Assembly (NCBI GenBank): GCA_900299145.1
Contig: OMIN01000031.1
Span: forward strand, 249 to 64,248
Length of the DNA: 64,000 nt
Origin: Betaproteobacteria bacterium
GTDB lineage: Bacteria > Pseudomonadota > Gammaproteobacteria > Burkholderiales > SG8-41
Reading direction: 5' to 3'
The position numbers were made by a program, and so were the translations under genes. Below the pieces are notes generated by a model. That model saw nothing but the letters and a program-made list of their open reading frames with translations. It made no database searches and was not told the origin of the DNA. This document shows, piece after piece, positions 43,894 through 62,986 of this stretch; within the stretch, counting starts at the first letter, position 1; every line of letters starts with the position of its first letter.

Positions 43894-44213
43894 TTACGCG
43901 GCGGCCCTTTTTAGGATATCGCGCGCCTCCGTAACACGCTTCAATTTGGCACGTAAACGCCTGATCTCGGCGTTCCGGCTCAATTCCTCAAGCTGGAACG
44001 CCGTTGAAGCAACGTAGCGCTTTAACCATGCATACCGGCTGTGGATTGTGATCCCCAGCCGCTTGGCCACTTCTGCTACTTCGTAACCCCGTTCGGTGAC
44101 CTGTTTTACCGCCTCTATCTTGAACGCCTGCGTATATCGCCTCGCGTTCATAACACCTACCATTCAGCTAATTCGTATGGCGCAAAGAAGTTTACGAAAT
44201 CGGTGGGAATTCA
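43894..44213 (-). mobile_element. IS3-family remnant (left IR + orfA, no orfB)
   Basis: OrfA-like RRYTQAFKIEAVKQV...RDILKRAAA*; IR-like TGAATTCCCACCGATTTCGTAAAC starting at 44213; expected AAAYFAK junction degraded. Confidence 0.8.
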
Positions 44214-44309: not shown

Positions 44310-44798
44310 ATGCAAAATCTACGCATACTCATCGCCCTGCTGGCGCTTTTCTTGAGCAGTGCGTACGCTCATGCGCAACCGACTGTCACGAGATCTGTCG
44401 GGCAGTCGCTGTACCTGCCCATTTACTCACATATCTGGCATGGCGATATTGACAGCAAGAGACAACCTACCAAGACACTGGTTTCCATATTGGTCAGCAT
44501 AAGAAATACTGATGCCTCAAGATCAATACGGCTTATCTCAGCCCTTTACTTCGATACTAGTGGCAAGCGAATCAAGGAATACATTACCCAGCCCATTACG
44601 ATCAATCCGATGGCAACGCACGAGATTTTTGTGCCACGCAGTGACGATACGGGTGGATCGGGCGCTAATTTCGTCGTGATCTGGCAGGCTCAGGCACCGG
44701 CTAGCCCACCACTGGTGGAGGGGGTCCATGCAAACTTACCTGCTGCGCGTTCCATCGCCTTCACTACTACGGCCAGAGTAATTCCACCAGATCAGTAA
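44310..44798 (+). CDS. DUF3124-like secreted protein
   Basis: Signal peptide; YLPIYSHI, SIRNTD, DDTGGSGANFVVIW, PLVEGV (family recognised from memory). Confidence 0.75.
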   Translation: MQNLRILIALLALFLSSAYAHAQPTVTRSVGQSLYLPIYSHIWHGDIDSKRQPTKTLVSILVSIRNTDASRSIRLISALYFDTSGKRIKEYITQPITINPMATHEIFVPRSDDTGGSGANFVVIWQAQAPASPPLVEGVHANLPAARSIAFTTTARVIPPDQ

Positions 44799-45219
44799 GG
44801 GCAATATAGCCCGTTACCTCCCCTATGCAGGGCGCAGGCAACTGCAATGCCAGATTGGCCATTCGTGCGTGGCGGCGCCACACAATAAAGTCAAAAACAA
44901 TGGTTACAAACAGGCATTGGCCGTTTGCGGTCGATTCCTGCATGCTTCGTAGCCCGGCGTTATAGTTATCAAGCCTTTACCCGAGAAACAGCTACCGATT
45001 TCCTGCACCATTGCTACTCTCCGCCCAAAGTAGGAATACCCAATACTCGCCGCTTTCAAGCATTGCGCATGTGCGTGAATGTTGACGCGGGCCTTTTCCG
45101 CGTATTATCACTGGTAAACCAAAGAGTATCGCTACTTTTTGTCACACTGCTCCAGCCAACATGCACAGCACGCAGGCGGACTGCCGCGGTACGGAATGTT
45201 GGCGGCCTCCAATCAGGAT

Positions 45220-45735
45220 ATGATCGTGACACCGGCAGAATCTGACTACCTTCTTCGCCTTGCGGCTCTATCCTTGTCGTTTGTTGGCTTTTCAGCTGTG
45301 GTAGTGACCTTGCGAGGTGCATTGGGTGGCGAGCTTTCTGATCGGCATCTTCGCCTTGTGCGCCTGTACATCGAAGGCGGTCTCCTGGTGACTGCCTTGG
45401 CCTTGGTACCTACCCTCCTAAATCTGCTCCATATCCCTGATACCATCACTTGGCTTCTGTCCAGCGCGGCCGCAGCGTCAATTTTCTCCTTCGTACTTTT
45501 GCTCCAATTCCGCCGCCGCCGTCTGGTTGAACCAGGCCCATTTCCCGTATGGGTCGTCGTCATTTACATCGTTTCGATCATCGCCGTAACGGGTCTCTGG
45601 CTAAACGTCATAGGAACTCTCTTTTCACCGAATTACGGCCCATACGCTGTTACCCTGACGTGGGCACTTTGCGTCTTTGGCTTCATTTTTGTACGGACCA
45701 TTGAGTTATTTCTGCACCGTGGGCCCCACCCCTAA
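45220..45735 (+). CDS. Hypothetical multi-pass membrane protein
   Basis: About 5 hydrophobic segments; AGGA RBS before ATG 45220. Confidence 0.65.
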   Translation: MIVTPAESDYLLRLAALSLSFVGFSAVVVTLRGALGGELSDRHLRLVRLYIEGGLLVTALALVPTLLNLLHIPDTITWLLSSAAAASIFSFVLLLQFRRRRLVEPGPFPVWVVVIYIVSIIAVTGLWLNVIGTLFSPNYGPYAVTLTWALCVFGFIFVRTIELFLHRGPHP

Positions 45736-46926: not shown

Positions 46927-47625
46927 TTAAGTGGAGTCGCGCGGCCTGCGTGCCGCACCATGCGCCTCGTGAAGCATATGCAGGGTGATCTTGCGCACCT
47001 CGGCCTTGCTGGCAGCGATATGCGCCTTGAGCAATAGCGCGACTTCGACGGCCTTGCGCTGCATCAGGAAACGTAGGATCTTGGCGTGCTCATCGTAGGT
47101 GGCAGCGATGCGTTCGCTCTTGGTGAAGTCAAGTCGGCGGATGATGCGGATTTTTTCAGTGATGTCGCGATGGACGCGCGCCATTTCCTCGTTTCCGGTG
47201 GCTAGCACCAAGTCTTGATGGAATGCCTCGTCATACATCGATACCGTTTCGCCATCTGCGAGACGCTTGTCCTTTGGCACTAGCCATAAATTCTTGAGGG
47301 CGGAGAAATCAGGCACGTTTTGCGCGTCGCAGAGCTGCCGCACTGCGGCCAATTCGAGCACAATGCGCAGGTCGTATAGTTGCTCTAGGCGATTGAAGTC
47401 AATGGGTGGCACGTTCCAGCCGCTGCGGTAGGCGACCTTGAGGTAGCCTTCCTGCTCGAGCCGGTGAAGCGCTTGGCGGACTGGCGTGCGGCTTACTCCG
47501 AGCGCGGCAGCCAGTTCCCCCTCCGTCAGGCGGTCACCGGGTAAGATGCGAAAGTCGAAGATGTCATGCTTGATCCGCTCGTAAACGGATTCTGACAGTC
47601 GGGCAGGTGAATGAGTCGAGGTCAT
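46927..47625 (-). CDS. GntR/FadR-family transcriptional regulator
   Basis: HTH LGVSRTPVRQAL, FCD domain; ATGA overlap with upstream gene. Confidence 0.93.
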   Translation of the reverse strand: MTSTHSPARLSESVYERIKHDIFDFRILPGDRLTEGELAAALGVSRTPVRQALHRLEQEGYLKVAYRSGWNVPPIDFNRLEQLYDLRIVLELAAVRQLCDAQNVPDFSALKNLWLVPKDKRLADGETVSMYDEAFHQDLVLATGNEEMARVHRDITEKIRIIRRLDFTKSERIAATYDEHAKILRFLMQRKAVEVALLLKAHIAASKAEVRKITLHMLHEAHGAARRPRDST

Positions 47626-48008
47626 ACTGGAATTATGCTCACATGCGCAGCAACGATGTGCCAGCCTTGGGACAGGTGTACCCAAGGCTGGCTCTGGCGT
47701 CCGCATCGCCCAGCCTTGCGAACGAACTTGATATTGGCAGTGGTAAAGTTGATGCCAAACGTCGTGATTACGGTGTTTCGCGACTTTCGGGCAGGTCCTG
47801 TCAGGTTGCACGCGGTGCGGAAGGCGCGAATGGCCGCGATACCGCAAAGATGCTCGCCGTTGCCGTAGCGCAGCGAGAGTCGGCTGTGCCAAAGCAGTAC
47901 ATCGAGCACAGTAAGATCATTGCTTACCGGCGCCGCCTCATATCGGGCTAAGGTGGGTGTCACTTCGGCCATAACATCGGGAAGGTTAATCTCGCCTGCA
48001 TCGACCAT
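47622..48008 (-). CDS. AtzH/HpxZ-like protein (DUF3225), possibly degenerating
   Basis: INLPDVMAEV, RYG, AIRAFR, TVITTFG, GRQSQ, WHIVAAHVS. Confidence 0.82.
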   Translation of the reverse strand: MVDAGEINLPDVMAEVTPTLARYEAAPVSNDLTVLDVLLWHSRLSLRYGNGEHLCGIAAIRAFRTACNLTGPARKSRNTVITTFGINFTTANIKFVRKAGRCGRQSQPWVHLSQGWHIVAAHVSIIPV

Positions 48009-48016
48009 CGCACCGC

Positions 48017-49423
48017 TCAAGTTGTTGGCGTCGGCGCGACGACGGGGCGCACCGTAATGCCGGCCTTCTGCAGTGCCCACACCGCGCGCAGGCAAATGTC
48101 TTCGCGCCAAGGCGGCGCGATCAGCTGAACACCGATCGGCAGATGGCCTTCGGTGGGCCAGGTTGGCGCGACAGCGACCGGTAGGCCAATAAAGGAGATT
48201 GGTTGCGTCAACAGCCCCATGCTGGGCCGCGTCGGCAGCGAGCGGCCATTAATCACGATTAAATCCTGCCCGAGAAGCGTGGCGGTTACAGGCGTCGCCG
48301 GCGCGATCAATAGATCGATCTCTCGGAAAGCCTCCAGCACACGCCGGCGGAACAAACTTCGCATCCGCTGCGCCTGCTCCACCCACTGGGCCGGAACCAG
48401 AGCTCCGGCCAAGAGCCGTTCGCGCGAAAGCGGCTCGAAGTCTTCCGGCCGTTCGCGCAACGCCGCCATGTGCAGTGCACCGCCTTCAGACGCGGTGATA
48501 ACAAAGGCTGCGGCACGCGCTGCCGCCACTTCGGGGAGGACAACGTCGCCTAGACTGCCGAGCGCGCGTGCCGCGCGCTCGGACGCAGCACGCGCTACCG
48601 CGCTTGCCTGGTCGTCGAAGTATCCAGCCAAGCGCGCGATCCGCAGGCCGTCGAGCCCGCGTGCGAGCGATTCGGAAGTGGGTTCGATGTTGCGCTGGGC
48701 ACAGGCCGGATCACCTCTGTCGGGGCCTTGCAGCACATCGTAGGCGAGCGCGAGGTCGTCGGCCGAGGCGGCGAGCGGGCCGAGGTGGTCGAGACTATGT
48801 ACGAAGGGAAAACTTCCCGTACGTGGCAGTCGTCCATAGGTAGGTTTGAGGCCAAAGATGCCGCAGAGCGAGGCGGGGACGCGGATGGAACCGTTGGTGT
48901 CGGAACCGAGTGCAATGGGCACCAGCCCGGCGGCAACGGCCGCGCTGGAGCCGCCGGAAGAGCCACCAGCGGTCCGTGCCGAGTCATGCGGATTGCGCGT
49001 GTTCCCGTAGTGCGTGTTCTCGGTAGTGAATCCGTAGGCCAGCGCGTCCATGTTGAGCGCACCCGTGAGCAGACCGCCAGCGTTGCGCATACGCTGCACC
49101 AGCGGGGCATCTGCTGTTGCCGGTGCGTTTCTGGCCAGTAGCCGGGCGCCGGCGAGCGTGGTGATGCCCGCGATGTCAAACAGATTCTTGGCCGCATACG
49201 GCACGGCTGCCAGTCGCCCTGACCGCTCACCGCGCGCACGCGCCGCATCGAGCGCCTCTGCCTCGCGCAGCGCGCGTTCAGTCGTTATAGTCGTCCAGGC
49301 GTTGAGTTCGGGATTGCGGGCCGCGATGCGCTCCAGCGCCGCGACCGCGATCTCCCGAGCCGAGACCTCGCCGCAATCGAAGGCGGCGGCAATGCCTGTC
49401 GCAGTCTCCGGATTGGGGTTCAT
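48017..49423 (-). CDS. AtzE-family amidase (amidase-signature)
   Basis: AAKNLFD, GGSSGGS, GSDTNGSIRVP triad motifs; LPIGVQLIAPPWRED. Confidence 0.9.
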   Translation of the reverse strand: MNPNPETATGIAAAFDCGEVSAREIAVAALERIAARNPELNAWTTITTERALREAEALDAARARGERSGRLAAVPYAAKNLFDIAGITTLAGARLLARNAPATADAPLVQRMRNAGGLLTGALNMDALAYGFTTENTHYGNTRNPHDSARTAGGSSGGSSAAVAAGLVPIALGSDTNGSIRVPASLCGIFGLKPTYGRLPRTGSFPFVHSLDHLGPLAASADDLALAYDVLQGPDRGDPACAQRNIEPTSESLARGLDGLRIARLAGYFDDQASAVARAASERAARALGSLGDVVLPEVAAARAAAFVITASEGGALHMAALRERPEDFEPLSRERLLAGALVPAQWVEQAQRMRSLFRRRVLEAFREIDLLIAPATPVTATLLGQDLIVINGRSLPTRPSMGLLTQPISFIGLPVAVAPTWPTEGHLPIGVQLIAPPWREDICLRAVWALQKAGITVRPVVAPTPTT

Positions 49424-50556
49424 GGTCTGTATTGCGGCGCTGGCAGCGTGTCGCCCGGCAGTCGTGCTGCCTGGACCAGTCTTGCCATCTCGGCCACTCG
49501 ATTGAACTCACTTGTCAGTGCTGCTCGGCGCGCCGGGTCGACATGGATATTATGCATGGCCAGAGCGGCGTCGACGAAAGCCTCGCGCTCGGTTGGTCCC
49601 ACGAAATGGCAGGCAGCAGCGCGCCCGCGCGAGATTTCGCGCAGTGGCGGTGCCAAGGTATGACAACGCTCGACGCCGCGCGGACAGCGTCCGAACAGGC
49701 GGCAGCGGTGGGCGTCGGGATCGATCGGGCTTTGCGGATCACCGCCGATTAGCAGGTCGGCGTCTGTTGTCTGGCCCCCGGCCAAGCCCCCTGGCAGAGA
49801 GGCAATCAGCGCGCGGGTGTACGGGTGCAGCGGGCGCGCGAACACTTCGCGTGCCGGCCCACTTTCGACGATCTGGCCAAGGTACATCACCAGCACTCGA
49901 TCGCACAACAAACGTACCACGTTGAGATCGTGAGAGACGAAGAGGAAGCTCATCCCCATCTCGCGCTTGAGCCGGTCGAGCAGTTGCAGGATTACCGCTT
50001 GCACCGAGACGTCGAGTGCAGCGGTTGGCTCGTCGAGTACAAGCAGTCGTGGCTTGACGACAATGGCGCGGGCGATGCCGACGCGCGCCTTCTGTCCTCC
50101 TGAGAGCTGGTGCGGATAGCGGTCGAGCAGTTCGAAGGGCAGGCCGACATGCGTGGCGGTTTCCTCGACGGCGCGGTCGAGCGCCGATCCACTCATATCG
50201 GTGAGTAGTCTCGCCGACTCGGCAATAGTCTGGCGTGCCGTGTAGCGCGGGTCGAGGCTGTCAGTAGGATCCTGAAACACCATCTGGATCTCGCGCCGCA
50301 TCGGGTGGTCGGCCATGGCCCGCGCCGGAATCAGGCCGATGCCATGGCCGTGGAAGCGCACCTGGCCGTCGGTTAGATCAAGGGTGCGCGTCAGCAACCG
50401 CACCAGCGTCGATTTGCCGCAGCCGGACTCGCCGACGAGGCCGACAGTTTCGCCTGCCTCTATGTGGAAGTTGAGTCCATCGACTGCATGCAAGCGCTTC
50501 TTATCGCCGACTGGGAAGTGTTTCACGAGATCGATGGCTTCAATTAGCCGTTTCAT
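49420..50556 (-). CDS. Peptide-type ABC ATPase (DppF/OppF) fused to C-terminal AtzG/HpxX-like domain
   Basis: GESGCGKST, LSGGQ, LDEPT, HPYT, AACHF, then in frame EAFVDAALAMHNIHVDPARR...FNRVAEMARLV...LPAPQYRP. Confidence 0.85.
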   Translation of the reverse strand: MKRLIEAIDLVKHFPVGDKKRLHAVDGLNFHIEAGETVGLVGESGCGKSTLVRLLTRTLDLTDGQVRFHGHGIGLIPARAMADHPMRREIQMVFQDPTDSLDPRYTARQTIAESARLLTDMSGSALDRAVEETATHVGLPFELLDRYPHQLSGGQKARVGIARAIVVKPRLLVLDEPTAALDVSVQAVILQLLDRLKREMGMSFLFVSHDLNVVRLLCDRVLVMYLGQIVESGPAREVFARPLHPYTRALIASLPGGLAGGQTTDADLLIGGDPQSPIDPDAHRCRLFGRCPRGVERCHTLAPPLREISRGRAAACHFVGPTEREAFVDAALAMHNIHVDPARRAALTSEFNRVAEMARLVQAARLPGDTLPAPQYRP

Positions 50557-50663
50557 GACGTCTTCACCCCGACCTCCATGCAAGCAAGAGAAAGCCAGCG
50601 TGCTCGCTGCGTTCGAAGCTGTTGGCTGGCACGGCATTGATACGGCCTGAACGCGTGGCTCAT
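50553..50663 (-). CDS. Putative 36-aa ORF coupled at both ends by ATGA overlaps
   Basis: [36 protein letters not shown]; no recognisable homology. Confidence 0.3.
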   Translation of the reverse strand: MSHAFRPYQCRASQQLRTQRARWLSLACMEVGVKTS

Positions 50664-51637
50664 GCGCTTTTTCCCATACGCGGGTTGTGGCAGGCGACCA
50701 AATGATTGCCGGCGATGGCGATCTCCGGCAGCGCAGAGGCGCATGCTTCGGAGCGCTGCTCGCAGCGTTCCGAGAAGCGGCAGGGAGGCAGGTCGTTGCG
50801 GCGCAAGTCCGGTAGATTGCCGGGGATCGCGGCGAGATTTTCGAGCTGCTCTTGCCCAACCGGCGTCGCGAGCACCAGTTGGGCGGTGTAGGGGTGTGCA
50901 GACGATTTGAACAGGGATTCGGTTGGACCAATCTCCACGACATGGCCAGCATGCATCACCGCGATTCGGTCGCAGAACTCGCGGGCGAGGCCGAGGTCGT
51001 GAGTGATCAACAGCGTCGCCATCCCCTTTTCACGGCCTAGGTCGCGTATCAGCCGCATGATCGCCGCCTGCGTGGTGACGTCGAGTCCGGTTGTGGGCTC
51101 ATCGGCGATCAGCAACCTCGGCTGGCAAGCCAATGCGATGGCGATCATCACACGCTGGCACATGCCGCCGGAGAGCTCGAAGGGATAGGCGGAGTAGCGA
51201 CGTTCCGGATCGGGGATGCGCACTTCAGAGAGACACTCTATTGCGCGTTCCCGTGCCTTACTGCCGCGAAGATCAGTGTGCCGTAGCAGTACATCCTCGA
51301 TCTGGCGGCCGACTTGTCGAATCGGATTGAGTGCAACACGCGGGTTCTGGAAGATCATCGCCAGTTCGCGTCCACGAATGTTTTTCATCGCAGCACCGTT
51401 ATCAGCCAGCAGATCCTGGCCAGCGAAGCGGATGTCGCCTCCCGTTACGCGCGCTGCGGCGTCAAGGATGCCAAGCACCGCGAACGAGAGCACCGACTTG
51501 CCCGAGCCACTCTCGCCCACCAAACCGAGCGAGCCTCCCTCTAGCAATTCGAGGCTAACGTTCTCCAGCGCGCGCACCGTGCCGCCGCGGGTGCGGAATT
51601 CGAGCGAAAACTTGTGGATTTCGAGCAGGGAGTTCAC
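50660..51637 (-). CDS. Peptide-type ABC ATPase (DppD/OppD)
   Basis: [26 protein letters not shown]; GTG start overlapping permease stop. Confidence 0.92.
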
Positions 51638-52503
51638 GTCCGTCTCCGTGGATCGACCAAGTCGCGCAGCGAATCGCCTAGCAGGTTGAAGCAGAACACT
51701 GCCAGCATCAGCACCGCGCCGGGGAAGAGCGCGATCCACCATTCGCCTGAGACTATGTACTGCGCACCCTCGGCAACCATGATGCCCCATTCTGCAGCTG
51801 GAGGGCGCACGCCAAGACCGATAAAGGACAGGCCGGCGGCGTTGAGAATGGCCCAACCCATGTTGAGCGAAACCTGAACTGTCATCGGCGGAAGAATATT
51901 GGGAATGATGTGGTAGAACAGCAGTCGCGCTTCGCTGTTGCCGGCCAGTCGCGCCGCCTCGACGAACCCGGTGTTTCTTAGTACACCGGACTCGGCCCGC
52001 GCCACGCGGATGTAGAAGGGTAGATTGATGATGGCGGTGGCCAGCACGATGTTGGCGACGGTGTTGCCCATCGCGGCGACGATGCCCATGGCCAGCACGA
52101 ACAGAGGGAATGCCATGATGGTGTCGGACAGCCGGCCGACGATGCGGTCGGTCCAGCCGCCGAAGAAGCCGGCGCAGGCACCGGCTAGGCCGCCAATTAG
52201 CACCGAGATGCTTACTGCAGCCACCGCGATACCGAGGTCCAGCCGCGCTGCTACCACCACCCGCGACAGAATATCGCGGCCAAGCGCGTCGGTGCCGAAC
52301 CAATACTTTAACGAAGGAGGTGCAAGTGGTGTGCCGACGTTGGATGTCAATGCATCGAAGGGCGCAAGCCACGGCCCGACCAGCGCCAGCAGAACAAATG
52401 TGGCAAAGAGCAGGAAAGCGGCGAGCGACAGCGGGTTCTCGCCGACGACGTAGCGCAGCGCGGTCCAGCGCTTTTGCCACGGTGACATTACAGCTTCAGC
52501 CAT
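51634..52503 (-). CDS. Peptide-type ABC permease (DppC-like)
   Basis: FGTDALGRDILSR, EAARLAG loop, GLGVRPPAAEWG. Confidence 0.92.
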   Translation of the reverse strand: MAEAVMSPWQKRWTALRYVVGENPLSLAAFLLFATFVLLALVGPWLAPFDALTSNVGTPLAPPSLKYWFGTDALGRDILSRVVVAARLDLGIAVAAVSISVLIGGLAGACAGFFGGWTDRIVGRLSDTIMAFPLFVLAMGIVAAMGNTVANIVLATAIINLPFYIRVARAESGVLRNTGFVEAARLAGNSEARLLFYHIIPNILPPMTVQVSLNMGWAILNAAGLSFIGLGVRPPAAEWGIMVAEGAQYIVSGEWWIALFPGAVLMLAVFCFNLLGDSLRDLVDPRRRT

Positions 52504-53509
52504 CGACACGCATCCGAGGATCGACCAAGCCATAGGCAATGTCGATGGCGAGGTTGAGGAAGACGTAAAGCAGCGCCATGGTCAGCACGAAGCCCTGCAC
52601 CGCTGCATAGTCCGAGGCGACCAGCGCTTCGATGGCGAAGGTGCCGATGCCCGGCCAGGCGAAGACCTTTTCGACCAGCACGTTGGAGCCGAGCAGGAAG
52701 GAGAACACCATGCCAAGAGTGGTCATTACCGGCAGCAGTGCGTTGCGGAAGGCGTAGGTGAAGAGCACTGTGGTCGGCGCCAGACCCGCGGCGCGCGCGG
52801 TGCGAATGAAATCGGCTGACAGCACCCCGAGCATCGAGGCACGCGTCATGCGCGCCAGCGGCGCCAGCACGAACAGCGCCAAGGTGATGGTAGGCAGAAT
52901 CAGTTGTTTAATCGCGCCGACGAATGCGGCAAGATCGCGGGCAATCAGGCTGTCGATCAAGTAGAAGCCGGAAACATGCGGCGGCGTCGACAAATAGGGG
53001 TCGAGCCGCCCCAGCGGCGATGGTGCCCAGCCGAGCAGGAAATAGAAGAAGTACGCCAGCAGCAGGCCGGTGAAGAAGGTCGGCAAGGACACGCCGGCAG
53101 TAGTAATGCCACGGCAAAGGTGGTCGATCCACGAGCCGGGCCGCGTTGCAGCGAGTATGCCCAGTGGCACTGCAACGCTTACAGCAAGCAACAAAGCACA
53201 AAGTGTCAACTCGACCGAGGCGGGCAGACGCATGGCAATTTCAGTAAGCACGGGCTGGCCAGTGCCGAGCGATGTGCCCCAGTCCCCGCGCGTTAGGTCG
53301 CGCACGTAGACCACGAACTGTTCGGGCATAGATTTATCTAGCCCGAGTTTCTTGCGGATTTCCTGAACTGCCTCGGCAGTGCCCGCCGGGCCCGCGAAGA
53401 ACGCCGCCGGATCGCCCGGCAGGGCACGCGTCAGCAGGAAGGTGACGACGACCACCCCGATCAAGTTTGGGATCGAACCCACCAGCCGTTTGAGAATGGT
53501 CGATACCAT
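52496..53509 (-). CDS. Peptide-type ABC permease (DppB-like)
   Basis: PGDPA, GDWGTS, FIRTARAAGL, VEKVFAWPGIG. Confidence 0.93.
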   Translation of the reverse strand: MVSTILKRLVGSIPNLIGVVVVTFLLTRALPGDPAAFFAGPAGTAEAVQEIRKKLGLDKSMPEQFVVYVRDLTRGDWGTSLGTGQPVLTEIAMRLPASVELTLCALLLAVSVAVPLGILAATRPGSWIDHLCRGITTAGVSLPTFFTGLLLAYFFYFLLGWAPSPLGRLDPYLSTPPHVSGFYLIDSLIARDLAAFVGAIKQLILPTITLALFVLAPLARMTRASMLGVLSADFIRTARAAGLAPTTVLFTYAFRNALLPVMTTLGMVFSFLLGSNVLVEKVFAWPGIGTFAIEALVASDYAAVQGFVLTMALLYVFLNLAIDIAYGLVDPRMRVDG

Positions 53510-53515
53510 TGCCGA

Positions 53516-55120
53516 TTACTGCTTCGAAATTTGGCGATAGTCAGGCTGCAGATGAAACCAGTAGGTGTAGCCTTGGACGTTCTTCTGCATCGCTACGTCC
53601 ATCATCGGCTGTGCCACAGGGATGCGCGGTACGTCCCTGTAGGAGATGTCGATAAAGCCCTTTACCGACTGCGCATACTTTTTGCTGTCTCCCTCAAAGC
53701 GCGCTGACTCCACTAGCTTGTCTAGCTCGGCGTTCTGGTAGCTCATGGTGTTGAACACCGCGTTTTGCCCGTGATAAGTCCAGAAGTAGAAGTACTCGGG
53801 ATAGTTGAGCCAGCCGCCAAAGCGGTTGACGATCAGCGGCATGTCCTTCTTCAGCAGCGCAGCACGCCAGTTGGCGCCTGGCACTTTGTTGATCGTCACC
53901 TTGATGTTGATCTGTGCCAGTGACTCCTGGATCAGGATGGCCATGGGTTCTGACACCGTGCCTTGGCCAAGGTCGAACGAGAGCGTGGTCTCGAAGCCTG
54001 CTTCCTTGCCCGCCTCCTTCATCAGGGCCTTGGCCTTGGAGACGTCGGTCGCGTACGAGGTTGAAGTCGGCCATTCCGTGCCCGTTACCGGCTTCTTGGC
54101 GCCAAACAGCGGCACAGCGCGGCCATAGAGTGCGCTCTGCATGATCTTGTCGTAAGGCAGCGCGTAGGCTACGGCCTGGCGCACCTTGACGTTGTCGAAG
54201 GGCGGCTTGTTCGACAGCATGCCGACGTACCACATGGAGTTTTCAATCGGTACGCTAGCGACCTTGACATTGCCTTTCTCCAGCGACATCTCGGCAAAAT
54301 CCTTGGGCGGCATTTCGTAGGTCATGTCGATATCGCCCTTGGCGAGCAGAGCACGACGATTGCCGGCGGAGGGCACCTCGCGCTGGATGATCCGCTTGAT
54401 CTTCGGCAGCGGTCCGCCCTTCCATTCGTCGAAGCGCTCGTAGACGATCTCTTGGCCAGGTTTGTAGGAGGCGACCTTGTAGGCGCCACCGCCCGCAGTG
54501 TTGTTCTTGAGCCAGTTCGCGGCCCACGGGTCTTCCTTGGTGGCGTTCTTCTGCGCTAGCGTCGAGTTGTAGATCGAGGCCACCGGCACCGCCATGTCCG
54601 GCAGGGTCATCTTGTCCTTGCGCAGGAAGGTGACCCTGAAGGTGTGATCATCTACGGCTTCGAACTGCTCGGTTTTTTCCAGCGAACCGGCCTTCATCTG
54701 GAAGGTGGGGAAGCCGCCCATGGCGAGCGCACGGTCGTAGGACCACTTGACGTCCTTGGCCGTCACTGGCGTGCCGTCATGGAATTTCGCGCCCTTGTTG
54801 AGTTTAAAGGTCACTGACATGCCGTCCTTGGCGACCTGCCAGCTCTCGGCAAGTTCGGGCTCAAGCTTCGAGTAGTCATAGCTGACGGTACCATTGGGAA
54901 GCTTTTTCTTGCCGTAGGTCATCAGGCGATCGTAGGCGAGCCACGCCACGCCGTAAGCAGGGCGGTTGGCACCGACACCCTGGATGTCTAGCATGTTGGG
55001 ACCGGTCTCGTTGGCGACGATGAGCGTCTCCTTCTTTGCGTCCTGGGCGCAAGCGACGAGCGGCGCGCAGGCAAGCAACGCGGTGCTGACGATACTAAAG
55101 CACAACTGTTTGGCCATCAT
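53516..55120 (-). CDS. ABC substrate-binding protein, family 5
   Basis: Signal peptide; LAESW, FHDGTPVTAKDVKWS, GGGAYK. Confidence 0.92.
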   Translation of the reverse strand: MMAKQLCFSIVSTALLACAPLVACAQDAKKETLIVANETGPNMLDIQGVGANRPAYGVAWLAYDRLMTYGKKKLPNGTVSYDYSKLEPELAESWQVAKDGMSVTFKLNKGAKFHDGTPVTAKDVKWSYDRALAMGGFPTFQMKAGSLEKTEQFEAVDDHTFRVTFLRKDKMTLPDMAVPVASIYNSTLAQKNATKEDPWAANWLKNNTAGGGAYKVASYKPGQEIVYERFDEWKGGPLPKIKRIIQREVPSAGNRRALLAKGDIDMTYEMPPKDFAEMSLEKGNVKVASVPIENSMWYVGMLSNKPPFDNVKVRQAVAYALPYDKIMQSALYGRAVPLFGAKKPVTGTEWPTSTSYATDVSKAKALMKEAGKEAGFETTLSFDLGQGTVSEPMAILIQESLAQINIKVTINKVPGANWRAALLKKDMPLIVNRFGGWLNYPEYFYFWTYHGQNAVFNTMSYQNAELDKLVESARFEGDSKKYAQSVKGFIDISYRDVPRIPVAQPMMDVAMQKNVQGYTYWFHLQPDYRQISKQ

Positions 55121-55132
55121 GTTGAGTCCTCT

Positions 55133-56977
55133 TTAGGCGGTGGTGATGCGGGTTGAAGAAGTTTGAGCGGCGATGTAAGCACGCCAGCCGCCGAAATGCG
55201 TGATGTCCTCGGCGCCTTCCGTGGCGACCGCTTCGCAGACAAACCCTTTGACGTTGGTGCCATCCTCGAGCTGCAAGGTGCCGATGCCGAGCGGTGCGGG
55301 AATTGCGGCTACAAAGCTGCCGAAGTGGTATGCCGGCAGTTCCCAGAGTTCGACCTCTACTCTCACACCTGTGTCCGGGGCCACGCGCACCAAGCCCGGC
55401 TTGGGCGGCGTGGTGCCTGACAGGGCATAGAAGCGATAGTGCGGTGCCGTGCGCGTGGCGCGTAACAGACGCGCGCCTCGTTCGACGAGTTGCCAGTTGA
55501 GCGGCATCCCGGAAAGATGCGCTCCGACCACAGCGACCGTGATCGTTTCCCCGTGCTGCGGTAAGGGCGGCAGCGGCGTTCTACGATGCGGCGGAAGTCC
55601 CACGCCGCTTGCGAGGCGGCGATGCAGTGTCGACTCGATACGCCGTGCGAACTCAGCTAGGCGATGGTCACCGCCACCCGGAGCGATCAAGGTGATGCCT
55701 GCGGGGAGGCCATCAATGCGGAAAGGTCCGGGAAGCGCCAGCGCGCTCATGTGGAGCAGGTTGACGAAATTGGTGTAGATGCCCAAGCGGCTGTTGGCTG
55801 TGATCGGCTCGGCGGCGATCTGGGCTCGGGTGTATATCGTGGGTGCCGTGGGGACGAGAAGCAGATCGATATCGTTGAACACTGCCTCGGCCATACGCTT
55901 GCCGGCTTCGAGCCGATACAAAGCGGCGAATGTGTCGGCAGCACTCTTGCCGTCGGCCTTGCCCATCACCGTGCGCACCGTCGGGTCCATGGCTTCGGCG
56001 TGCCGATCATAGAAGTCGGCGATGGCGAGACGCCGTTCCGCCACCCACGGGCCGTCGTACAGAAGCGCGGCGATTTCAGCGAATGGTGCGAGTGGTACGT
56101 CGGTAAAACTCAGCAACGTGTGTTGCTTTAGCGCGTGCAAGGCCGCCGAGAAGGCACCGGCAGCTATTGAGTCGCCGCAGAAATCGAGTGGAGCCGGGAT
56201 GCCAATGCGCAGCTCTTTCGTTAGCGTCCCTAAACTTGCGACTTCATGCGAATAGGGATCGGCTTGGTCGCGACCGGCAAGTACTGACAGCACTTGCCAA
56301 CCCTCGGCGACGGATTGTGCAAATATCGAAACGCAGTCGAGGCTGCGACAGGCGGGAAACACACCTGAGGTGCTCACCAATCCCGGCGTCGGCTTGATTC
56401 CAACTAGGTTGCAGAAACCGGCCGGCACTCGACCTGATCCTGCTGTGTCGGTTCCTAATGCAAAGGCAACCAGACCCTGCGCCACGGCCGCCGCCGAACC
56501 TGAACTCGATCCACCGGACACGTAGTCAGAATTGAATGGGTTCGGTACCTCGCCGTATGGCGAGCGAGTGCCTACCAAGCCAGTAGCGAACTGGTCGAGA
56601 TTTGTCTTGCCTACCACTATCGCGCCGGAGGCCTCGAGCCTTTCGATCACGGTCGCGGACCGCTTCGGGGTATAGGCGAACGCAGGACAGGCACAGGTCG
56701 TGGGTATGCTCGCTATGTCGATGTTGTCCTTGACGGCATATGGAACACCAAACAGCGGCAGGACATCCAACACACCCGGGTCAACGACGAATCGGTCGGT
56801 CAGCGCGGTGGCGCGCGCGAGTAGCGCCGCCTCATCGACAAGGGTAATGAAGATGGGCGCGACACCGCAGGTGCGAATGCGCGCGAGAATTTCTCGCACA
56901 AGGTCGACGGGAGTAAACTCGCGTCGACGGTAGCCATTGTTGATGGCATCGACGGTTAGTGCAGCGGGGAGTTGCAT
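55133..56977 (-). CDS. atzF: Allophanate hydrolase
   Basis: AVKDNID, KTNLDQFATGLVGTRSPYG, GTDTAGSGRVPA, C-domain VVGAHLSGMPLN. Confidence 0.95.
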   Translation of the reverse strand: MQLPAALTVDAINNGYRRREFTPVDLVREILARIRTCGVAPIFITLVDEAALLARATALTDRFVVDPGVLDVLPLFGVPYAVKDNIDIASIPTTCACPAFAYTPKRSATVIERLEASGAIVVGKTNLDQFATGLVGTRSPYGEVPNPFNSDYVSGGSSSGSAAAVAQGLVAFALGTDTAGSGRVPAGFCNLVGIKPTPGLVSTSGVFPACRSLDCVSIFAQSVAEGWQVLSVLAGRDQADPYSHEVASLGTLTKELRIGIPAPLDFCGDSIAAGAFSAALHALKQHTLLSFTDVPLAPFAEIAALLYDGPWVAERRLAIADFYDRHAEAMDPTVRTVMGKADGKSAADTFAALYRLEAGKRMAEAVFNDIDLLLVPTAPTIYTRAQIAAEPITANSRLGIYTNFVNLLHMSALALPGPFRIDGLPAGITLIAPGGGDHRLAEFARRIESTLHRRLASGVGLPPHRRTPLPPLPQHGETITVAVVGAHLSGMPLNWQLVERGARLLRATRTAPHYRFYALSGTTPPKPGLVRVAPDTGVRVEVELWELPAYHFGSFVAAIPAPLGIGTLQLEDGTNVKGFVCEAVATEGAEDITHFGGWRAYIAAQTSSTRITTA

Positions 56978-57191: not shown

Positions 57192-58055
57192 TTAAGCACT
57201 TAGCCATTCTCGCTCAACCTGCTCGGGTGTGCGATAGCCGAGCGATTGATGAATGCGTTTGCGGTTGTAAAACGCCTCGATGTAATCAAAGATGACAGCA
57301 CGGGCCTCATCCCGCGTGCGGAAATCGCAGTGGTGTATCACCTCGTTTTTAAGATTCGAGAAGAAGCTCTCCGCCACCGCGTTGTCCTGCGGCACCTTGC
57401 GCCCATTCATACTCGCACATACGCCATAGTCGGCAAGCAGTTGCCGGTATGCGCCGGTGTTGTATTGCGGCCCCCGGTCGGTGTGGTGAATCAAGCCCGC
57501 TGCCGGCTCGCGGTGCTCCAGCGCCATTTTCAGTGCGCCGACGTGTAATTGCTGTCCCGGCTGCTGATCCATCGCCCAGCCCACCACTTTGCGTGAGTAC
57601 AGATCGAGCAACACCGCCAGATGCAGCCAGCCCTCGCGCGTGCGAATGAACGTCATGTCACCAGCCCACACCCGGTTTGGCTGGGGAGCATGGAAACGGC
57701 CCAGCAGCAAGTCCGGCGCGGGCGGCGCTGTTTTGTGGTGCTCTACGGTGAGCCGTTGCCGGCTGTGGCGATTCGCTTCGATGTGGTGTTCTCGCCGTAA
57801 CCGGGCTACCCGATGCTTGCCGCAAGGTATGCCACGGGCGTTGAGCGTGCGCCAGGTCTTCACGCTGCCGTAGGCCTCGCGGTGTTCCACGTGCACGCGC
57901 CGGATTTCAATCGTCAGTTCACGATCCGCGCTGGCCCGTGCGCTTTCGGGACGGGTGAGCCACGCATGGTAGCCGCTGCGGGAAACCCGCAGCAGTTCAC
58001 ACAACCGGGCAATTGCATACCGGCTTCGTTGCTCACGAATGAAGGCATACTTCAC
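57192..58055 (-). CDS. IS3 transposase OrfB (DDE)
   Basis: WAGDMT, HHTDRG, AVAESFF, YNRKRIH. Confidence 0.93.
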   Translation of the reverse strand: MKYAFIREQRSRYAIARLCELLRVSRSGYHAWLTRPESARASADRELTIEIRRVHVEHREAYGSVKTWRTLNARGIPCGKHRVARLRREHHIEANRHSRQRLTVEHHKTAPPAPDLLLGRFHAPQPNRVWAGDMTFIRTREGWLHLAVLLDLYSRKVVGWAMDQQPGQQLHVGALKMALEHREPAAGLIHHTDRGPQYNTGAYRQLLADYGVCASMNGRKVPQDNAVAESFFSNLKNEVIHHCDFRTRDEARAVIFDYIEAFYNRKRIHQSLGYRTPEQVEREWLSA

Positions 58056-58381
58056 GGCAGTTCCTTCGCAAAGTATGCGGCTGCCTTTTTTAAAATGTCG
58101 CGCTCCTCGGTCACGCGTTTGAGCTCGCGCCGTAGCCGATCCACTTCGCTGTAGTCTGACAGCCGCTTGGCGCCCGGGCCGCGAAAGGCGGCTGCCTCGC
58201 CCTTTGAACCCAATTGTGCCTGCCACTTATACAGTTGGTTGCGGCGAATGCCCAATTCCAGCGCTAATTGCGCCGCCGGCTTTTGCCCCGCTTCCAGCAG
58301 CTTTACCGCCTCCAGCTTGAATTCCTTGGCAAACCGAGCGCGTCTACGCCCCGCATTGACCTTTTCCAGTTCCTTGCCCAT
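58052..58381 (-). CDS. IS3 transposase OrfA
   Basis: FAKEFKLEAV...LKRVTEERDILKKAAAYFAKE. Confidence 0.93.
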   Translation of the reverse strand: MGKELEKVNAGRRRARFAKEFKLEAVKLLEAGQKPAAQLALELGIRRNQLYKWQAQLGSKGEAAAFRGPGAKRLSDYSEVDRLRRELKRVTEERDILKKAAAYFAKELP

Positions 58382-58441
58382 TCGACACCTCCACAGGTAT
58401 TGTCTAACTTCAAAAGTGTCTACGAAAGCTGGGATAGCTCA

Positions 58442-59505
58442 CTACTGCCAATTGGTTTTCCGGCGTCGTTTGAGAATGGCACAATTCCGCCGCGCTCAGA
58501 CTCCTGGCCTCACATACGCGGGGATGTGAAAGTGAGGCAACGAAAACTAGAGCAACCGGTGAAAGTGTTCAGCGGGTGGAGCTCTAAGGAGTTAGTAGAG
58601 AAATTTATCGATAACAAGTGCCAAACTATCATCGACGGTAAGGGCCAGGAAACCGTTTTCGAGATTACATCAAGCGGCACAATCGAAGCAGTTAAAGTTA
58701 GGGGCGCCCCCAGCCACGTAATTTCGACACTTACGGGATTCGGGGGGCCGCAAAAGGCAACCGCCGACCTTCTGGAATTGGGCGTTCCATTTGATGACTA
58801 CCCGAAGCCTGTCCAATTAATCAAATATCTGACGTCTATGATTAGGGGGAGTGACTTCCTAGCTCTCGATTTTTTCTCTGGATCAGCGACAACCGCACAT
58901 GCAATTCTGCAGCTAAACGCTGAAGATGGCGGGAGTCGAAAGTTTGTCATGGTGCAACTTCCGGAGAGGTGCGCCGACGAGACGGCGGCGTTCAAAGCAG
59001 GGTATCAAACCATCGCAGAAATTGGTAAAGACAGAATTCGTCGTGTTGGACAGAAATTTATTGCAAGTGGTCAAAAGATCGATGTCGGCTTTCGTGTTCT
59101 AAAGATTAATTCGTCAAATATGGCCAACATCTACTACGCCCCGACGCACTGGACAGAGCTAACCTCGATCTGTTCGTCGATAACATCAAGCCCGACCGTA
59201 CGCCGGAGGACCTGCTGTTCCAGGTGATGCTGGACTGGGGCGTCGATCTGGCACTGCCGATTGCCAAAGCGGGGATTCAGGGCAAGGACGTGTACTTCGT
59301 CGATGGCCAAGACACGAACATGGCACTCGCGGCCTGTTTTGACGCGCACGGAGGTGTCGATGAAGCTTTTGTCAAAGAACTGGCCAGGCGCCAACCCCTG
59401 TGCGTGGTGTTCCGCGATGCCGGTTTCAAGGACAGCGCGGTCAAGATCAACGTGGAGCAGATTTTCAAGCTGTTGTCGCCCGCCACCGATGTGAAGTGCA
59501 TTTAG
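58442..59505 (+). pseudogene. mod: Type III R-M methyltransferase (mod), 5' truncated by IS and frameshifted
   Basis: YPKPVQLI, LDFFSGSATTAHA, KFVMVQLPE present; DPPY half missing; 1-bp deletion at 59139-59142. Confidence 0.9.
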
Positions 59506-59738: not shown

Positions 59739-59875
59739 AAAAAATTAATAAAATCAATAAGTTACTGATAAACACACGCAGTAAAGCGGCCATGGTCAAC
59801 ATGGGCGTGAACAGCGCGCCGCGCCGACGGCTTGCAGAGAAGAAATAGAAGTTTGCAGAGAGATTGCAGAGAACA

Positions 59876-62800
59876 ATGAAGCTGAAATTCAAGACGCAGG
59901 CATTCCAGACGGCAGCCGTTCAGGCTGTGGTGGATTGCTTTCAAGGGCAACCGCTGGCCTCGCCCGCCGCCATGAGCTACCGCATCGATCCCGGCAAAGT
60001 GGCACAGGGGCAGACCATTGGCAGCACGGTGGGCAGTGAAGATGGCTTCCGGAATGCCGACTTGAGGCTCGGCGATGCCGCCTTGCTGGACAACATCCAG
60101 AAGGTGCAGCGGGCGCAGAACCTGCCGGTGTCCGCCGAGCTGGTCAAGACCAGGGTGGCTACGGTGAATCTCGACATCGAGATGGAAACCGGCACCGGTA
60201 AGATCTACTGCTACATCAAGACGATTTTCGAGCTGAACAAGCGCTACGGCTGGAGCAAATTCATCATCGTGGTGCCCAGCATCGCCATCCGCGAGGGGGT
60301 GGCCAAGTCGCTGGAGATTACCGCCGAGCATTTCCTGGAGACCTATCACAAGAAAGCGCGGTTCTTCATCTACAACTCCAAACAACCGCACCACCTGGAG
60401 AGCTTTTCGTCGGATGCGGGCATCAACGTGATGGTGATCAATGTGCAGGCATTCAATGCCAAAGGCGCAGATGCTCGGCGCATTTACGGCACGCCAAAGG
60501 TCAATTCCAAGGGACAATCCGTAATGGTCGGCTTGGACGATTTCCAGTCGCGCAAACCAATCGACGTGATAAATGCAAATCGCCCCATCCTGATTCTGGA
60601 CGAACCGCAGAAGTTGGGAGGCGCGGCAACACTGAAATCGCTGGAGGAATTCAAGGCGCTCATGGTGCTGCGCTACTCGGCTACCCACAAGACCACCCAC
60701 AACAAGATACACCGGCTGGATGCGCTTGACGCCTATAACCAAAAGCTGGTGAAAAAGATTGCCGTGCGCGGCATTGAGGTCAAGGGGTTGGCGGGCACGG
60801 CGGGTTACCTCTACCTGCAATCCATCGAGATTTCAACCAACAAGCCGCTCGAGGCGCGCGTGGAGTTCGAGCAAAAGCTGGCGGGCGGCAACATCAAGCG
60901 CGTCATGCGCAAGCTGGGCAAGCGCGACAATCTGTTCGATCTGTCCAACCAACTCGATCAATACCGTGATGGCTACGTGGTGTCGGAAATCAACGCCAAC
61001 ACCGACACCTTAAATTTCACCAACGGGCTTGAATTGACGGCGGGGCGCGCAACGCAAGACATCACCGAGGACGCGCTGCGCCGCATTCAGATACGCGAGG
61101 CCATCAAGGCGCACTTTGACAAGGAGCAGGCACTGTTCCAGCAGGGCGTGAAGGTGTTGACGTTATACTTCATCGACGAGGTGGCCAAATACCGCGACTA
61201 CGCGGCTGCCGATGAGAAAGGCGAGTATGCCCGCATCTTTGAGGAGGAATACAACCTCTACCTGAACGAAGTGCTCGATCTGCACGAGACGCCTTACATC
61301 CAGTATCTCAAGCGCATTCCCCCCGAAAAGACCCACAGCGGCTACTTTGCCATCGACAAAAAAAGCAAGCGGCTGGCCGACCCCGACGTCGTCAAGCGCG
61401 GCGAGAACGCCGGATTGTCGGATGATGTGGATGCCTACGACCTCATCTTGAAAGACAAAGAGCGCTTGCTGTCGCTGGCGGAGCCGGTGCGCTTCATCTT
61501 TTCGCACTCGGCCCTGCGTGAAGGATGGGATAACCCCAACGTGTTCGTCATCTGCGCCCTCAAGCACAGCGACAACACGATTTCGCGCCGGCAGGAGGTG
61601 GGGCGGGGTCTGCGCTTGTCGGTGAATCAGTCCGGCGACCGCATGGATCACCCGGCCACGGTTCACGACGTGAATGTGCTGACGGTGGTGGCCAGCGAAA
61701 GCTACAAGGATTTCGTCGCTGCACTGCAAAAGGACATCAGCGAGTCTTTGTCAGCGCGGCCACGGGTGGCCGACAAAGCCTATTTCACCGGCAAGACGGT
61801 CACCACAGCCGATGGCATGACTACCGTTACGGAAGACCAGGCCACGGACATCGAGTTTTATTTGATTCAGAATGGCTATGTGGACAAAAAGCGCAACATT
61901 ACCGAGAAGTATCACCAGGACAAGAAAAACGGCACTTTGGCGACGCTTCCCGAGGAGCTGACGTCCATTGGCGAGCAGGTTTTCAAGCTCGTGGACGCTG
62001 TCTTCAGCGACGGCCTGTTGCCCGACATCGGTGACGACCGCCGGCCGAAAAAGAACCCGCCCAACGCCAACTTCGAGAAGCAGGAATTTAAGGCGCTGTG
62101 GAGCCGCATCAACCGCAAGGCGGCCTACAGTGTGGCGTTTAATTCAGACGAGCTGGTGAAAAAGGCGGTCGATAGTCTAAATCACAAGGACACCGGGTTG
62201 CGCGTAACGCCGTTGCAATACACGATCCAGCGTGGTGAACAAGCGGCTGCCGTGACCTACGATGACATGAAAGGCGGCAATGCATTCGAGCTAAAGGCCA
62301 TGCAGACCGAAGCCAGCTACGTTTCGACCCATTCTGCCGTGAAGTACGACCTCATCGGCAAGCTGGCCGATGGCACGCAACTCACGCGCCGCACCATTGC
62401 GGAGATACTCAAGGGCATCAATGTCGCGGTATTTGCGCAGTTCAAGACCAACCCGGAGAGCTTCATCGCCGAGGCGATCCGCATGATTAACGAGCAAAAG
62501 GCCACGATCATCATCGAGTATCTGGCCTATGATCCGGTCGAGGATAAATTCGACCTCGATATTTTCACGGCGGGGCAAACCAAGCAGGACTTCAGCAACG
62601 CGGTCAAGACACCAAAGCACCACATCTATGATTACGTGTTGCCAGATTCCGGTTCAAATCCGGAGCGCCAGTTTGCCGAAGCATTGGAAGCCAGCGCCGA
62701 GGTGGTGGTGTACGCCAAGCTGCCACGCGGATTCCTGATCCCAACGCCCGTGGGCGACTACAACCCGGATTGGGCGATCACCTTCAAGGAAGGCTCGGTG

Positions 62801-62986
62801 AAGCACGTCTATTTCGTGGCGGAAACCAAGGGCACCATGTCGTCAATGAAATTGCAGCCCATTGAAAAAACCAAGATTGACTGCGCCCGAAAGTTTTTCG
62901 ATGAAATTAACCGGCGGTATGCACCAGAGAACGTCAGGTACGACGTGGTGGATAGCTTTGGCAAGTTGATGGAAGTGTTGAAGTAG
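59876..62986 (+). CDS. res: Type III restriction enzyme Res subunit (Walker A variant)
   Basis: [41 protein letters not shown]...ETKG. Confidence 0.93.

Follow-up and report, generated by a model that had tools for sequence, protein, structure and literature searches.

A conserved fusion of a Dpp-type importer ATPase with an AtzG-like amidase subunit in Betaproteobacteria

To our knowledge, ATP-binding cassette (ABC) importers are as a rule distinct proteins from the enzymes that consume what they import, and a direct physical coupling of the two has rarely been documented. A 64,000-nucleotide stretch of a betaproteobacterial draft genome (assembly GCA_900299145.1, contig OMIN01000031.1, positions 249 to 64,248 of the forward strand; hereafter the window, numbered from its first letter) raises the question of whether such a coupling can be inherited as a single gene. 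In a catabolic operon on its minus strand, dppF, which encodes an ABC transporter ATPase, continues without a stop into a tail that resembles AtzG, the small partner subunit of the amidase AtzE, and the atzE gene follows directly. A first-pass annotation made from the letters alone had pointed out this continuous frame and proposed that it would dock the amidase on the importer, with the caveat that it might be a recent stop-loss or indel of this strain. Is the fusion genuine, is it inherited, and what may it do for AtzE?

AtzG has no catalytic role and combines with AtzE in an obligate heterotetramer (AtzE2G2, alpha2-beta2); AtzE is insoluble without AtzG, and the pair is thought to have derived from GatC and GatA (PMC6219798). 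The gene order atzF, ABC transporter, atzG, atzE and atzH has been described in beta-proteobacteria, with atzG as a separate gene (Esquirol et al., 2018, PMC6219798). The corresponding part of the window is made up of the following features.

49420-50556, minus strand: dppF::atzG fused gene, a single open reading frame (ORF) of 378 amino acids plus stop, with ABC_tran, oligo_HPY and AtzG-like Pfam matches
49603-50556, minus strand: Opp/Dpp-type ABC ATPase part, residues 1-318, delimited by Pfam domains, motifs and invariant cysteines
49423-49602, minus strand: AtzG-like module, residues 319-378, recognised by PF13318, alignment with PDB 6c62_C, stand-alone homologues and the ratio of nonsynonymous to synonymous substitution rates (dN/dS)
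49600-49602, minus strand: junction codon V319, GTG in the window, the probable site of the former atzG start according to codon alignments
49420-49423, minus strand: ATGA overlap of the fusion stop and the atzE start, read directly from the sequence and suggestive of translational coupling

The fused gene translates as one protein in an uninterrupted frame, as the first-pass annotation had read it. Its N-terminal part is a complete transporter ATPase: in Pfam profile searches of the window protein (P0001), ABC_tran (PF00005) covers residues 26-179 (E 1.4e-33) and oligo_HPY (PF08352) residues 230-298 (E 1.4e-10; 41.9 bits against a cut-off of 27.1), and the Walker A (GESGCGKST), signature (LSGGQ), Walker B (LLVLDEPT) and H-loop (SHDL) motifs are all present. 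In Escherichia coli DppF, the ligands of a 4Fe-4S cluster are Cys293/299/306/323, and the iron-sulphur (Fe-S) domain is C-terminal and stabilises the Dpp complex (PMC12136057). The window ATPase has the same domain organisation as its counterpart in the E. coli DppBCDF transporter (ABC_tran plus oligo_HPY) and the same four-cysteine pattern (C-x5-C-x6-C-x16/17-C); its putative 4Fe-4S ligands C285, C291, C298 and C316 are invariant across the fused sequences aligned. It differs from E. coli DppF in having 60 extra residues after the last cysteine. Since the scores fall below the equivalog cut-offs of the NCBIfam DppF/OppF pair (NF043071, 254.1 bits against 660; NF011659, 284.3 against 540), the protein is best regarded as a member of the family and not as a dipeptide or oligopeptide DppF/OppF proper.

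The extra residues are an AtzG homologue. PF13318 matches residues 328-376 over model positions 2-50 of 50 (E 1.3e-4), tail residues 3-60 align with residues 3-60 of the crystallised AtzG of Pseudomonas sp. ADP (PDB 6c62_C, E 1.4e-3), and the tail is 43-46% identical to stand-alone PF13318 proteins of 58-82 amino acids. The window tail scores 22.7 bits by hmmscan and 25.2 bits in a six-frame genome search (gathering cut-off 24); the fused orthologues score 28.7-42.5 bits, all above the cut-off. The module begins three residues past the last Fe-S cysteine, ends in the family motif PAPxYRP, and has the position and the coupling to atzE that are usual for atzG, the TGA of the fusion (49420-49422) overlapping the ATG of atzE (49423-49421). 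It is not a free-standing protein of about 60-80 amino acids; it is the C-terminus of the 378-residue protein and has no start of its own. The codon of V319 is GTG at 49602-49600, and the preceding 24 nucleotides, GGGCGCGCTGCTGCCTGCCATTTC, contain no Shine-Dalgarno-like purine run when read directly. The first-pass identification of the tail, the overlap with atzE and the missing ribosome-binding site before the junction GTG are thus all borne out.

Comparison with other genomes indicates how widely the junction is shared. GTDB was scanned with one genome per species; a scan with the exact junction peptides of the window alone gave no matches, and an alignment of four junctions as query then succeeded. 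The 86-residue junction was found in one segment, at 67-80% identity, in the genomes of five other GTDB species (L036-L040), labelled as Rhodocyclaceae, Methyloversatilis, Rhodocyclales and Sulfuritalea metagenome-assembled genomes (MAGs; Rhodocyclaceae/Sterolibacteriaceae). In these five, the whole fused protein aligned as a single tblastn high-scoring segment pair over residues 1-378 with 82-86% identity and no internal stops, and the operon was syntenic from atzF to gntR, with atzH undetected in L040. Two metagenome contigs, L050 and L051, carry the junction as well; the fused ORF is 377-382 amino acids long in all seven, and the ATGA overlap with atzE recurs in L038, L039, L040, L050 and L051. 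Further, protein P0003, encoded on independent ENA and Logan contigs (L013/L014), has 86% identity overall and 79% in the tail, a continuous frame and an identical gene order. The junction was also present in a 177-residue fragment (P0006) and in a noisy Logan contig (L015). Independent genomes therefore carry fused proteins of the kind that the first-pass annotation had suggested searching for, and with this junction conserved across species, an assembly error is very unlikely.

Some matches did not withstand inspection. Word-indexed protein searches returned two fused proteins and one apparent 60-residue stand-alone AtzG (P0005); the latter was rejected as a gene-calling artefact on L015, where the frame is really continuous with dppF. 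That contig (Logan SRR28161539) is full of frameshifts, with atzE broken up into three called genes and dppF likewise fragmented. A partial fused junction at 67% identity was seen on L041 (CAJAYO010000453.1), a 2.3-kb contig binned with an 'Opitutae' MAG and hence with an unrelated phylum; mis-binning of this short contig is a more probable explanation than a true occurrence outside Betaproteobacteria.

The fused sequences share the junction consensus ...ACHF-V-x-PTERE-x-[FY]-[VI]-x-A-[AS]-L, in which residues A314-V319, P321 and T322 are invariant. Pairwise Nei-Gojobori comparisons at synonymous divergences (dS) of 0.2-1.5 gave median dN/dS values of 0.083 (ATPase part) and 0.243 (tail). The tail is therefore translated in this frame and constrained by purifying selection. 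With at least seven diverged full-length sequences fused in the same way, the caveat of a recent strain-specific change falls away: the translational fusion is genuine and inherited, and is neither an assembly error nor specific to one strain. In addition, the fused module is the only AtzG in these genomes, as all six (the window genome and the five other species) have exactly one PF13318 match, always the fused one, and exactly one AtzE-family gene, adjacent to the fusion.

Could AtzG nevertheless be made on its own from within the fused gene? V319 is encoded by GTG in the window, L036, L037, L038 and L050, and by GTC in L039, L040 and L051, and no other in-frame start lies before the AtzG domain in the aligned fused sequences. 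Internal initiation at codon 319 was therefore rejected as a general source of AtzG.

The likely origin of the fusion is visible in relatives that keep the two genes apart. In another family, four species of a single genus (L055, L056, L057 and L062) have dppF directly followed by a separate atzG and then atzE. Their dppF, an orthologue with 57% identity, ends ...ACHFPL(x10)*, its TGA overlaps the ATG of atzG (ATGA), and atzG, which reads MKPDPSAYVDAAL, lies in a different frame from dppF, so that two polypeptides are made. These loci and the clusters of Esquirol et al. (2018) have the same genes in the same order as the window, with dppF directly before atzG, but the dppF of L055-L057 and L062 has its own tail of about 12 residues and a stop, followed by a separate atzG ATG, whereas the window encodes one polypeptide. 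Separate genes with an ATGA overlap are most likely the ancestral state. Comparison of the junctions places V319 at the old AtzG initiator site and indicates that the DppF tail was lost; a small deletion at the overlapped dppF/atzG junction would be the simplest origin of the fusion.

In a tree of the ATPase part, all fused sequences fall inside one clade with 100/100 support, and monophyly of the fused set is not rejected (approximately unbiased test, p-AU 0.356). The sole unfused member of the clade is G030 (L002, G030:C2, 802-3030), in which the importer proteins are 82-95% identical, dppF (82%) ends ACHLA*, gntR begins 15 nucleotides on, and atzG, atzE and atzH are absent. This genome may represent either the nearest unfused sister state or a secondary loss by a clean deletion of the block from the tail to atzH. 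The genus of the window organism itself contains related importer operons (L004 and L005, in G008 and G019) with the order dppF-atzH-gntR and without atzG or atzE, which suggests that the cargo genes behind the importer are modular. In these two loci, AtzH stands beside the importer in the absence of AtzE.

The fusion is rare. AtzG-like sequence was detected in 47 of 401 genomes sampled from the order, and among those inspected only the window genome and G094, where the partner is atzF, had fusions, the rest being small free-standing genes. Open frames of 200-1274 amino acids around AtzG-like matches in Burkholderiales were rejected as fusions, except in G094 and G562: they are out-of-frame read-through of the upstream gene, with 19-30% arginine and a clear methionine start just ahead of the AtzG domain. 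Similarly, P0007, P0015 and other long proteins from a representative search proved to be Endotoxin_C2-repeat proteins with spurious matches. Within the GTDB family of the window organism, only 1 of 159 genomes carries the fusion, namely the window genome, and this lone occurrence, together with flanking insertion sequences, points to acquisition of the fusion operon by transfer.

A second, independent fusion has a different partner. In G094 (L043 331-2574, G094:C5), a 747-residue ORF combines an allophanate hydrolase (Amidase plus AH_C) with an AtzG-like module (27.4 bits, above the cut-off), and atzE comes next; the linker of about 100 residues is rich in Ala, Gly and Pro. The same arrangement, with 714 amino acids and a diverged linker, is found in another species of this genus, G562 (L058, G562:C25). 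As in the window, AtzG-like sequence forms the C-terminus of the gene before atzE, but the partner is an allophanate hydrolase and the linker is about 100 residues long, against an ATPase and about eight residues in the window. AtzF::AtzG is an independent event in another family; it shows that AtzG tolerates a large N-terminal partner. AtzG has been captured at least twice by whatever gene lay upstream, which suggests that it may serve repeatedly as a tether for AtzE.

Better-known systems help to delimit what is new. The AtzG-AtzE pair of Pseudomonas sp. ADP (1-carboxybiuret hydrolase, PDB 6C62/6C6G) shares with the window the G-E-H gene order and the coupling of G and E, but its AtzG is a free protein of 68 amino acids encoded by its own gene in atzDGEHF, whereas the AtzG of the window is the C-terminus of an ABC ATPase. 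The window AtzE also matches GatA structures (E 1e-57 to 1e-64); unlike GatC-GatA of GatCAB, the window pair has no GatB partner and no tRNA role, and its small subunit is fused to a transporter ATPase. All parts belong to known families, and the covalent join of dppF and atzG is new; no mention of an AtzG fusion was found in the literature searched, in keeping with the statement of the first-pass annotation that it knew of no described example.

The fusion is gene 6 of 9 in the operon atzF-SBP-dppBCD-dppF::atzG-atzE-atzH-gntR, where SBP is a solute-binding protein gene. In order of transcription, the other members are as follows.

55133-56977, minus strand: allophanate hydrolase (AtzF-like), operon gene 1, with Amidase and AH_C domains (TIGR02713, 780.8 bits against a cut-off of 511)
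53516-55120, minus strand: family-5 solute-binding protein, from the ORF (the L013 orthologue is SBP_bac_5)
51634-53509, minus strand: two permease genes, DppB-type at 52496-53509 and DppC-type at 51634-52539, from the ORFs (BPD_transp_1 in L013)
50660-51637, minus strand: first ATPase (DppD-type), without the extension, start approximate (ABC_tran plus oligo_HPY)
48017-49423, minus strand: AtzE-family amidase of the Ser-cisSer-Lys amidase signature family (NF006631, PDB 6c62_A, GGSSGGS)
47622-48008, minus strand: AtzH-like gene of the NTF2 fold (PF11533, 143.6 bits)
46927-47625, minus strand: GntR/FCD regulator (PF00392 plus PF07729), start set by homology

The binding protein is 84-86% identical across the fused operons, and the window permeases are 86-89% identical to those in the other fused operons. 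By profile and motif, the amidase is assigned to AtzE: it scores 688.9 bits with NF006631 (cut-off 461) and 660.4 bits with TIGR02715 (cut-off 425.75), matches PDB 6c62_A with E 4.5e-162 and retains the GGSSGGS signature. The ATG of gntR overlaps the stop of atzH (ATGA). About 100 nucleotides (50557-50659) separate the stop of the first ATPase gene from the start of the fusion in the window, where L013 has a 4-nucleotide overlap; this spacer is specific to the window. PF09663 (cyanuric acid hydrolase, atzD) had no match in the window genome, and the control genomes were equally silent.

In seven Burkholderiales loci (L018, L019, L021, L024, L032, L054 and L060), a stand-alone atzG-atzE pair directly follows a family-5 binding-protein gene and not an ATPase gene, and the binding protein is 68-70% identical to that of the window. 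Judging from these arrangements, the association of the binding protein with atzGE holds across different gene orders.

The operon is flanked by an IS3-type transposase gene (57192-58226, minus strand) and a transposase OrfA fragment (43894-44163, minus strand), and this transposase-bracketed, island-like setting is consistent with horizontal acquisition. Outside the transposases lies a restriction-modification pair, consisting of a DNA methylase-like gene (58268-59227, plus strand) and a 1040-residue ResIII/endonuclease gene (59864-62986, plus strand). Between the operon and the transposase fragment, where coding sequence is sparse, lie a DUF3124 gene (44310-44798, plus strand; 133.6 bits) and, at 45139-45735, a 198-residue membrane-like ORF that matched no family.

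How might the fused protein work? We consider it probable, though well short of certain, that the inherited dppF::atzG fusion lets AtzE assemble on the C-terminal tail of the ATPase at the importer. The last gene of the importer, encoding its second ATPase, would have absorbed the downstream atzG when a small deletion took out the DppF tail of about 12 residues together with its stop and brought the two frames into one at the former start of atzG. AtzE would be translated by coupling from the same mRNA as the fusion and would assemble on the tail, at the importer's cytoplasmic face and behind the Fe-S domain. Such assembly is expected because each genome encodes a single AtzG, the fused one, and a single AtzE, which is reported to need AtzG for solubility (PMC6219798). 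An imported amide or ureide, once delivered by the family-5 binding protein, would encounter AtzE at the transporter, so that the first catabolic enzyme would be placed at the cytoplasmic mouth, and AtzH and AtzF, as free proteins, would complete the conversion to ammonia and CO2. Binding of AtzE by the tail, incorporation of the fused ATPase into the transporter and a benefit from proximity are what we infer from the sequences. The docking proposed in the first-pass annotation is thus a reasonable reading, while its rationale, the channelling of unstable carbamoyl intermediates, is weak, because what the importer brings in is a stable external substrate; the labile intermediates appear only after AtzE has acted, and the proteins that would take them over, AtzH and AtzF, are untethered.

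A more elaborate form of this arrangement, which we put forward tentatively as a possibility of lower probability, is a transport metabolon in which AtzE dimers sit on the Fe-S C-terminal domain, the substrate is hydrolysed on its exit from the permease and the ATPase is subject to feedback from AtzE occupancy. The dimers might bridge two transporters, because AtzE and AtzG form an alpha2-beta2 complex and each transporter has one DppF.

Several observations weigh against assembly of AtzE at the importer. The linker is only about eight residues long and lies beside the Fe-S domain, which may be sterically too tight for an AtzE dimer of about 100 kDa. The reported AtzE2G2 composition is at odds with a single DppF per transporter, so that two transporters per AtzE dimer or some other assembly would be needed. 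The hmmscan score of the window's own tail is slightly below the curated PF13318 cut-off, and the 82%-identical DppF of G030 indicates that the ATPase works without tail, atzE or atzH. An AlphaFold2 model of the single-chain fusion from a 7-row alignment had a mean pLDDT (predicted local distance difference test) of 43; it gave no usable tail geometry and was not used. Finally, persistence of the fusion is no proof of benefit, since the fusion is locked in: once the start and ribosome-binding site of atzG were lost, a stop at the junction would abolish AtzG.

This last point leads to the alternative of a fusion that is covalent but functionally neutral, in which the tail serves AtzE and tethering brings no kinetic, regulatory or stability gain, the join persisting only because re-splitting would need a stop, a ribosome-binding site and a start simultaneously. 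Such neutrality is possible, although we would not bet on it. With the ancestral-type ATGA overlap seen in L055-L057 and L062, fusing is a one-step event, the joining of AtzG to atzF in another genus suggests fusing to whichever gene lies upstream, G030 has an orthologous importer that lacks the tail and atzE, and fusions are confined to the window genome and G094 among the 47 AtzG-positive genomes of the order, as far as these were inspected. Set against this are the persistence of the fusion across dS of up to about 1, in at least three families, one of which probably received it by transfer, and the invariance of the junction residues; both are still compatible with neutrality. Tethering would also be lost if the AtzG module were freed as a small protein, by initiation at GTG-319 or by proteolysis of the linker, and AtzE were left untethered. 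The position of that GTG, where the initiator of AtzG would be, in five of the sequences is what recommends this idea, which we consider unlikely: the codon is GTC in three others without another in-frame start, no Shine-Dalgarno-like sequence precedes it, there is no stop from which re-initiation could be coupled, and no protease site is known.

Regulatory domains at the C-terminus of ABC-importer ATPases such as MalK, MetN, ModC and OpuAA bind small ligands or regulators and thereby control transport. They resemble the window protein in carrying an extra cytoplasmic-side module on the C-terminus of the nucleotide-binding subunit, but the module in the window is a catabolic enzyme subunit. 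As such add-on domains are common in ABC ATPases, and the tail abuts the Fe-S domain that stabilises the Dpp complex (PMC12136057), the tail could conceivably have been co-opted as a regulatory or stabilising extension with loss of the AtzE partnership. We regard this as improbable, given that the AtzG family motifs are kept up to the C-terminal PAPxYRP, that the tail always stands directly before atzE and is translationally coupled to it, and that AtzE would otherwise be without an AtzG in all six genomes. The least credible reading attributes the tail to faulty assembly or sequencing, or to a stop-loss that arose recently in the window genome alone. The window does come from a draft assembly of 158 contigs, but at least seven full-length sequences obtained independently in different projects share the junction at 67-80% identity and show synonymous divergence as well as purifying selection, and the comparative data refute this reading.

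The locus therefore presents a natural, conserved fusion of a transporter ATPase with the obligate small subunit of a cytoplasmic amidase. Because precomputed Pfam calls for the fused proteins miss the AtzG module, these proteins are labelled as plain ABC ATP-binding proteins, and the genomes that encode them would seem to have AtzE without its partner. The fusion offers a system for asking whether an enzyme anchored at an importer alters flux, the way intermediates are handled or the control of transport. If the metabolon arrangement is true, it would represent a novel means of linking ABC import to catabolism.

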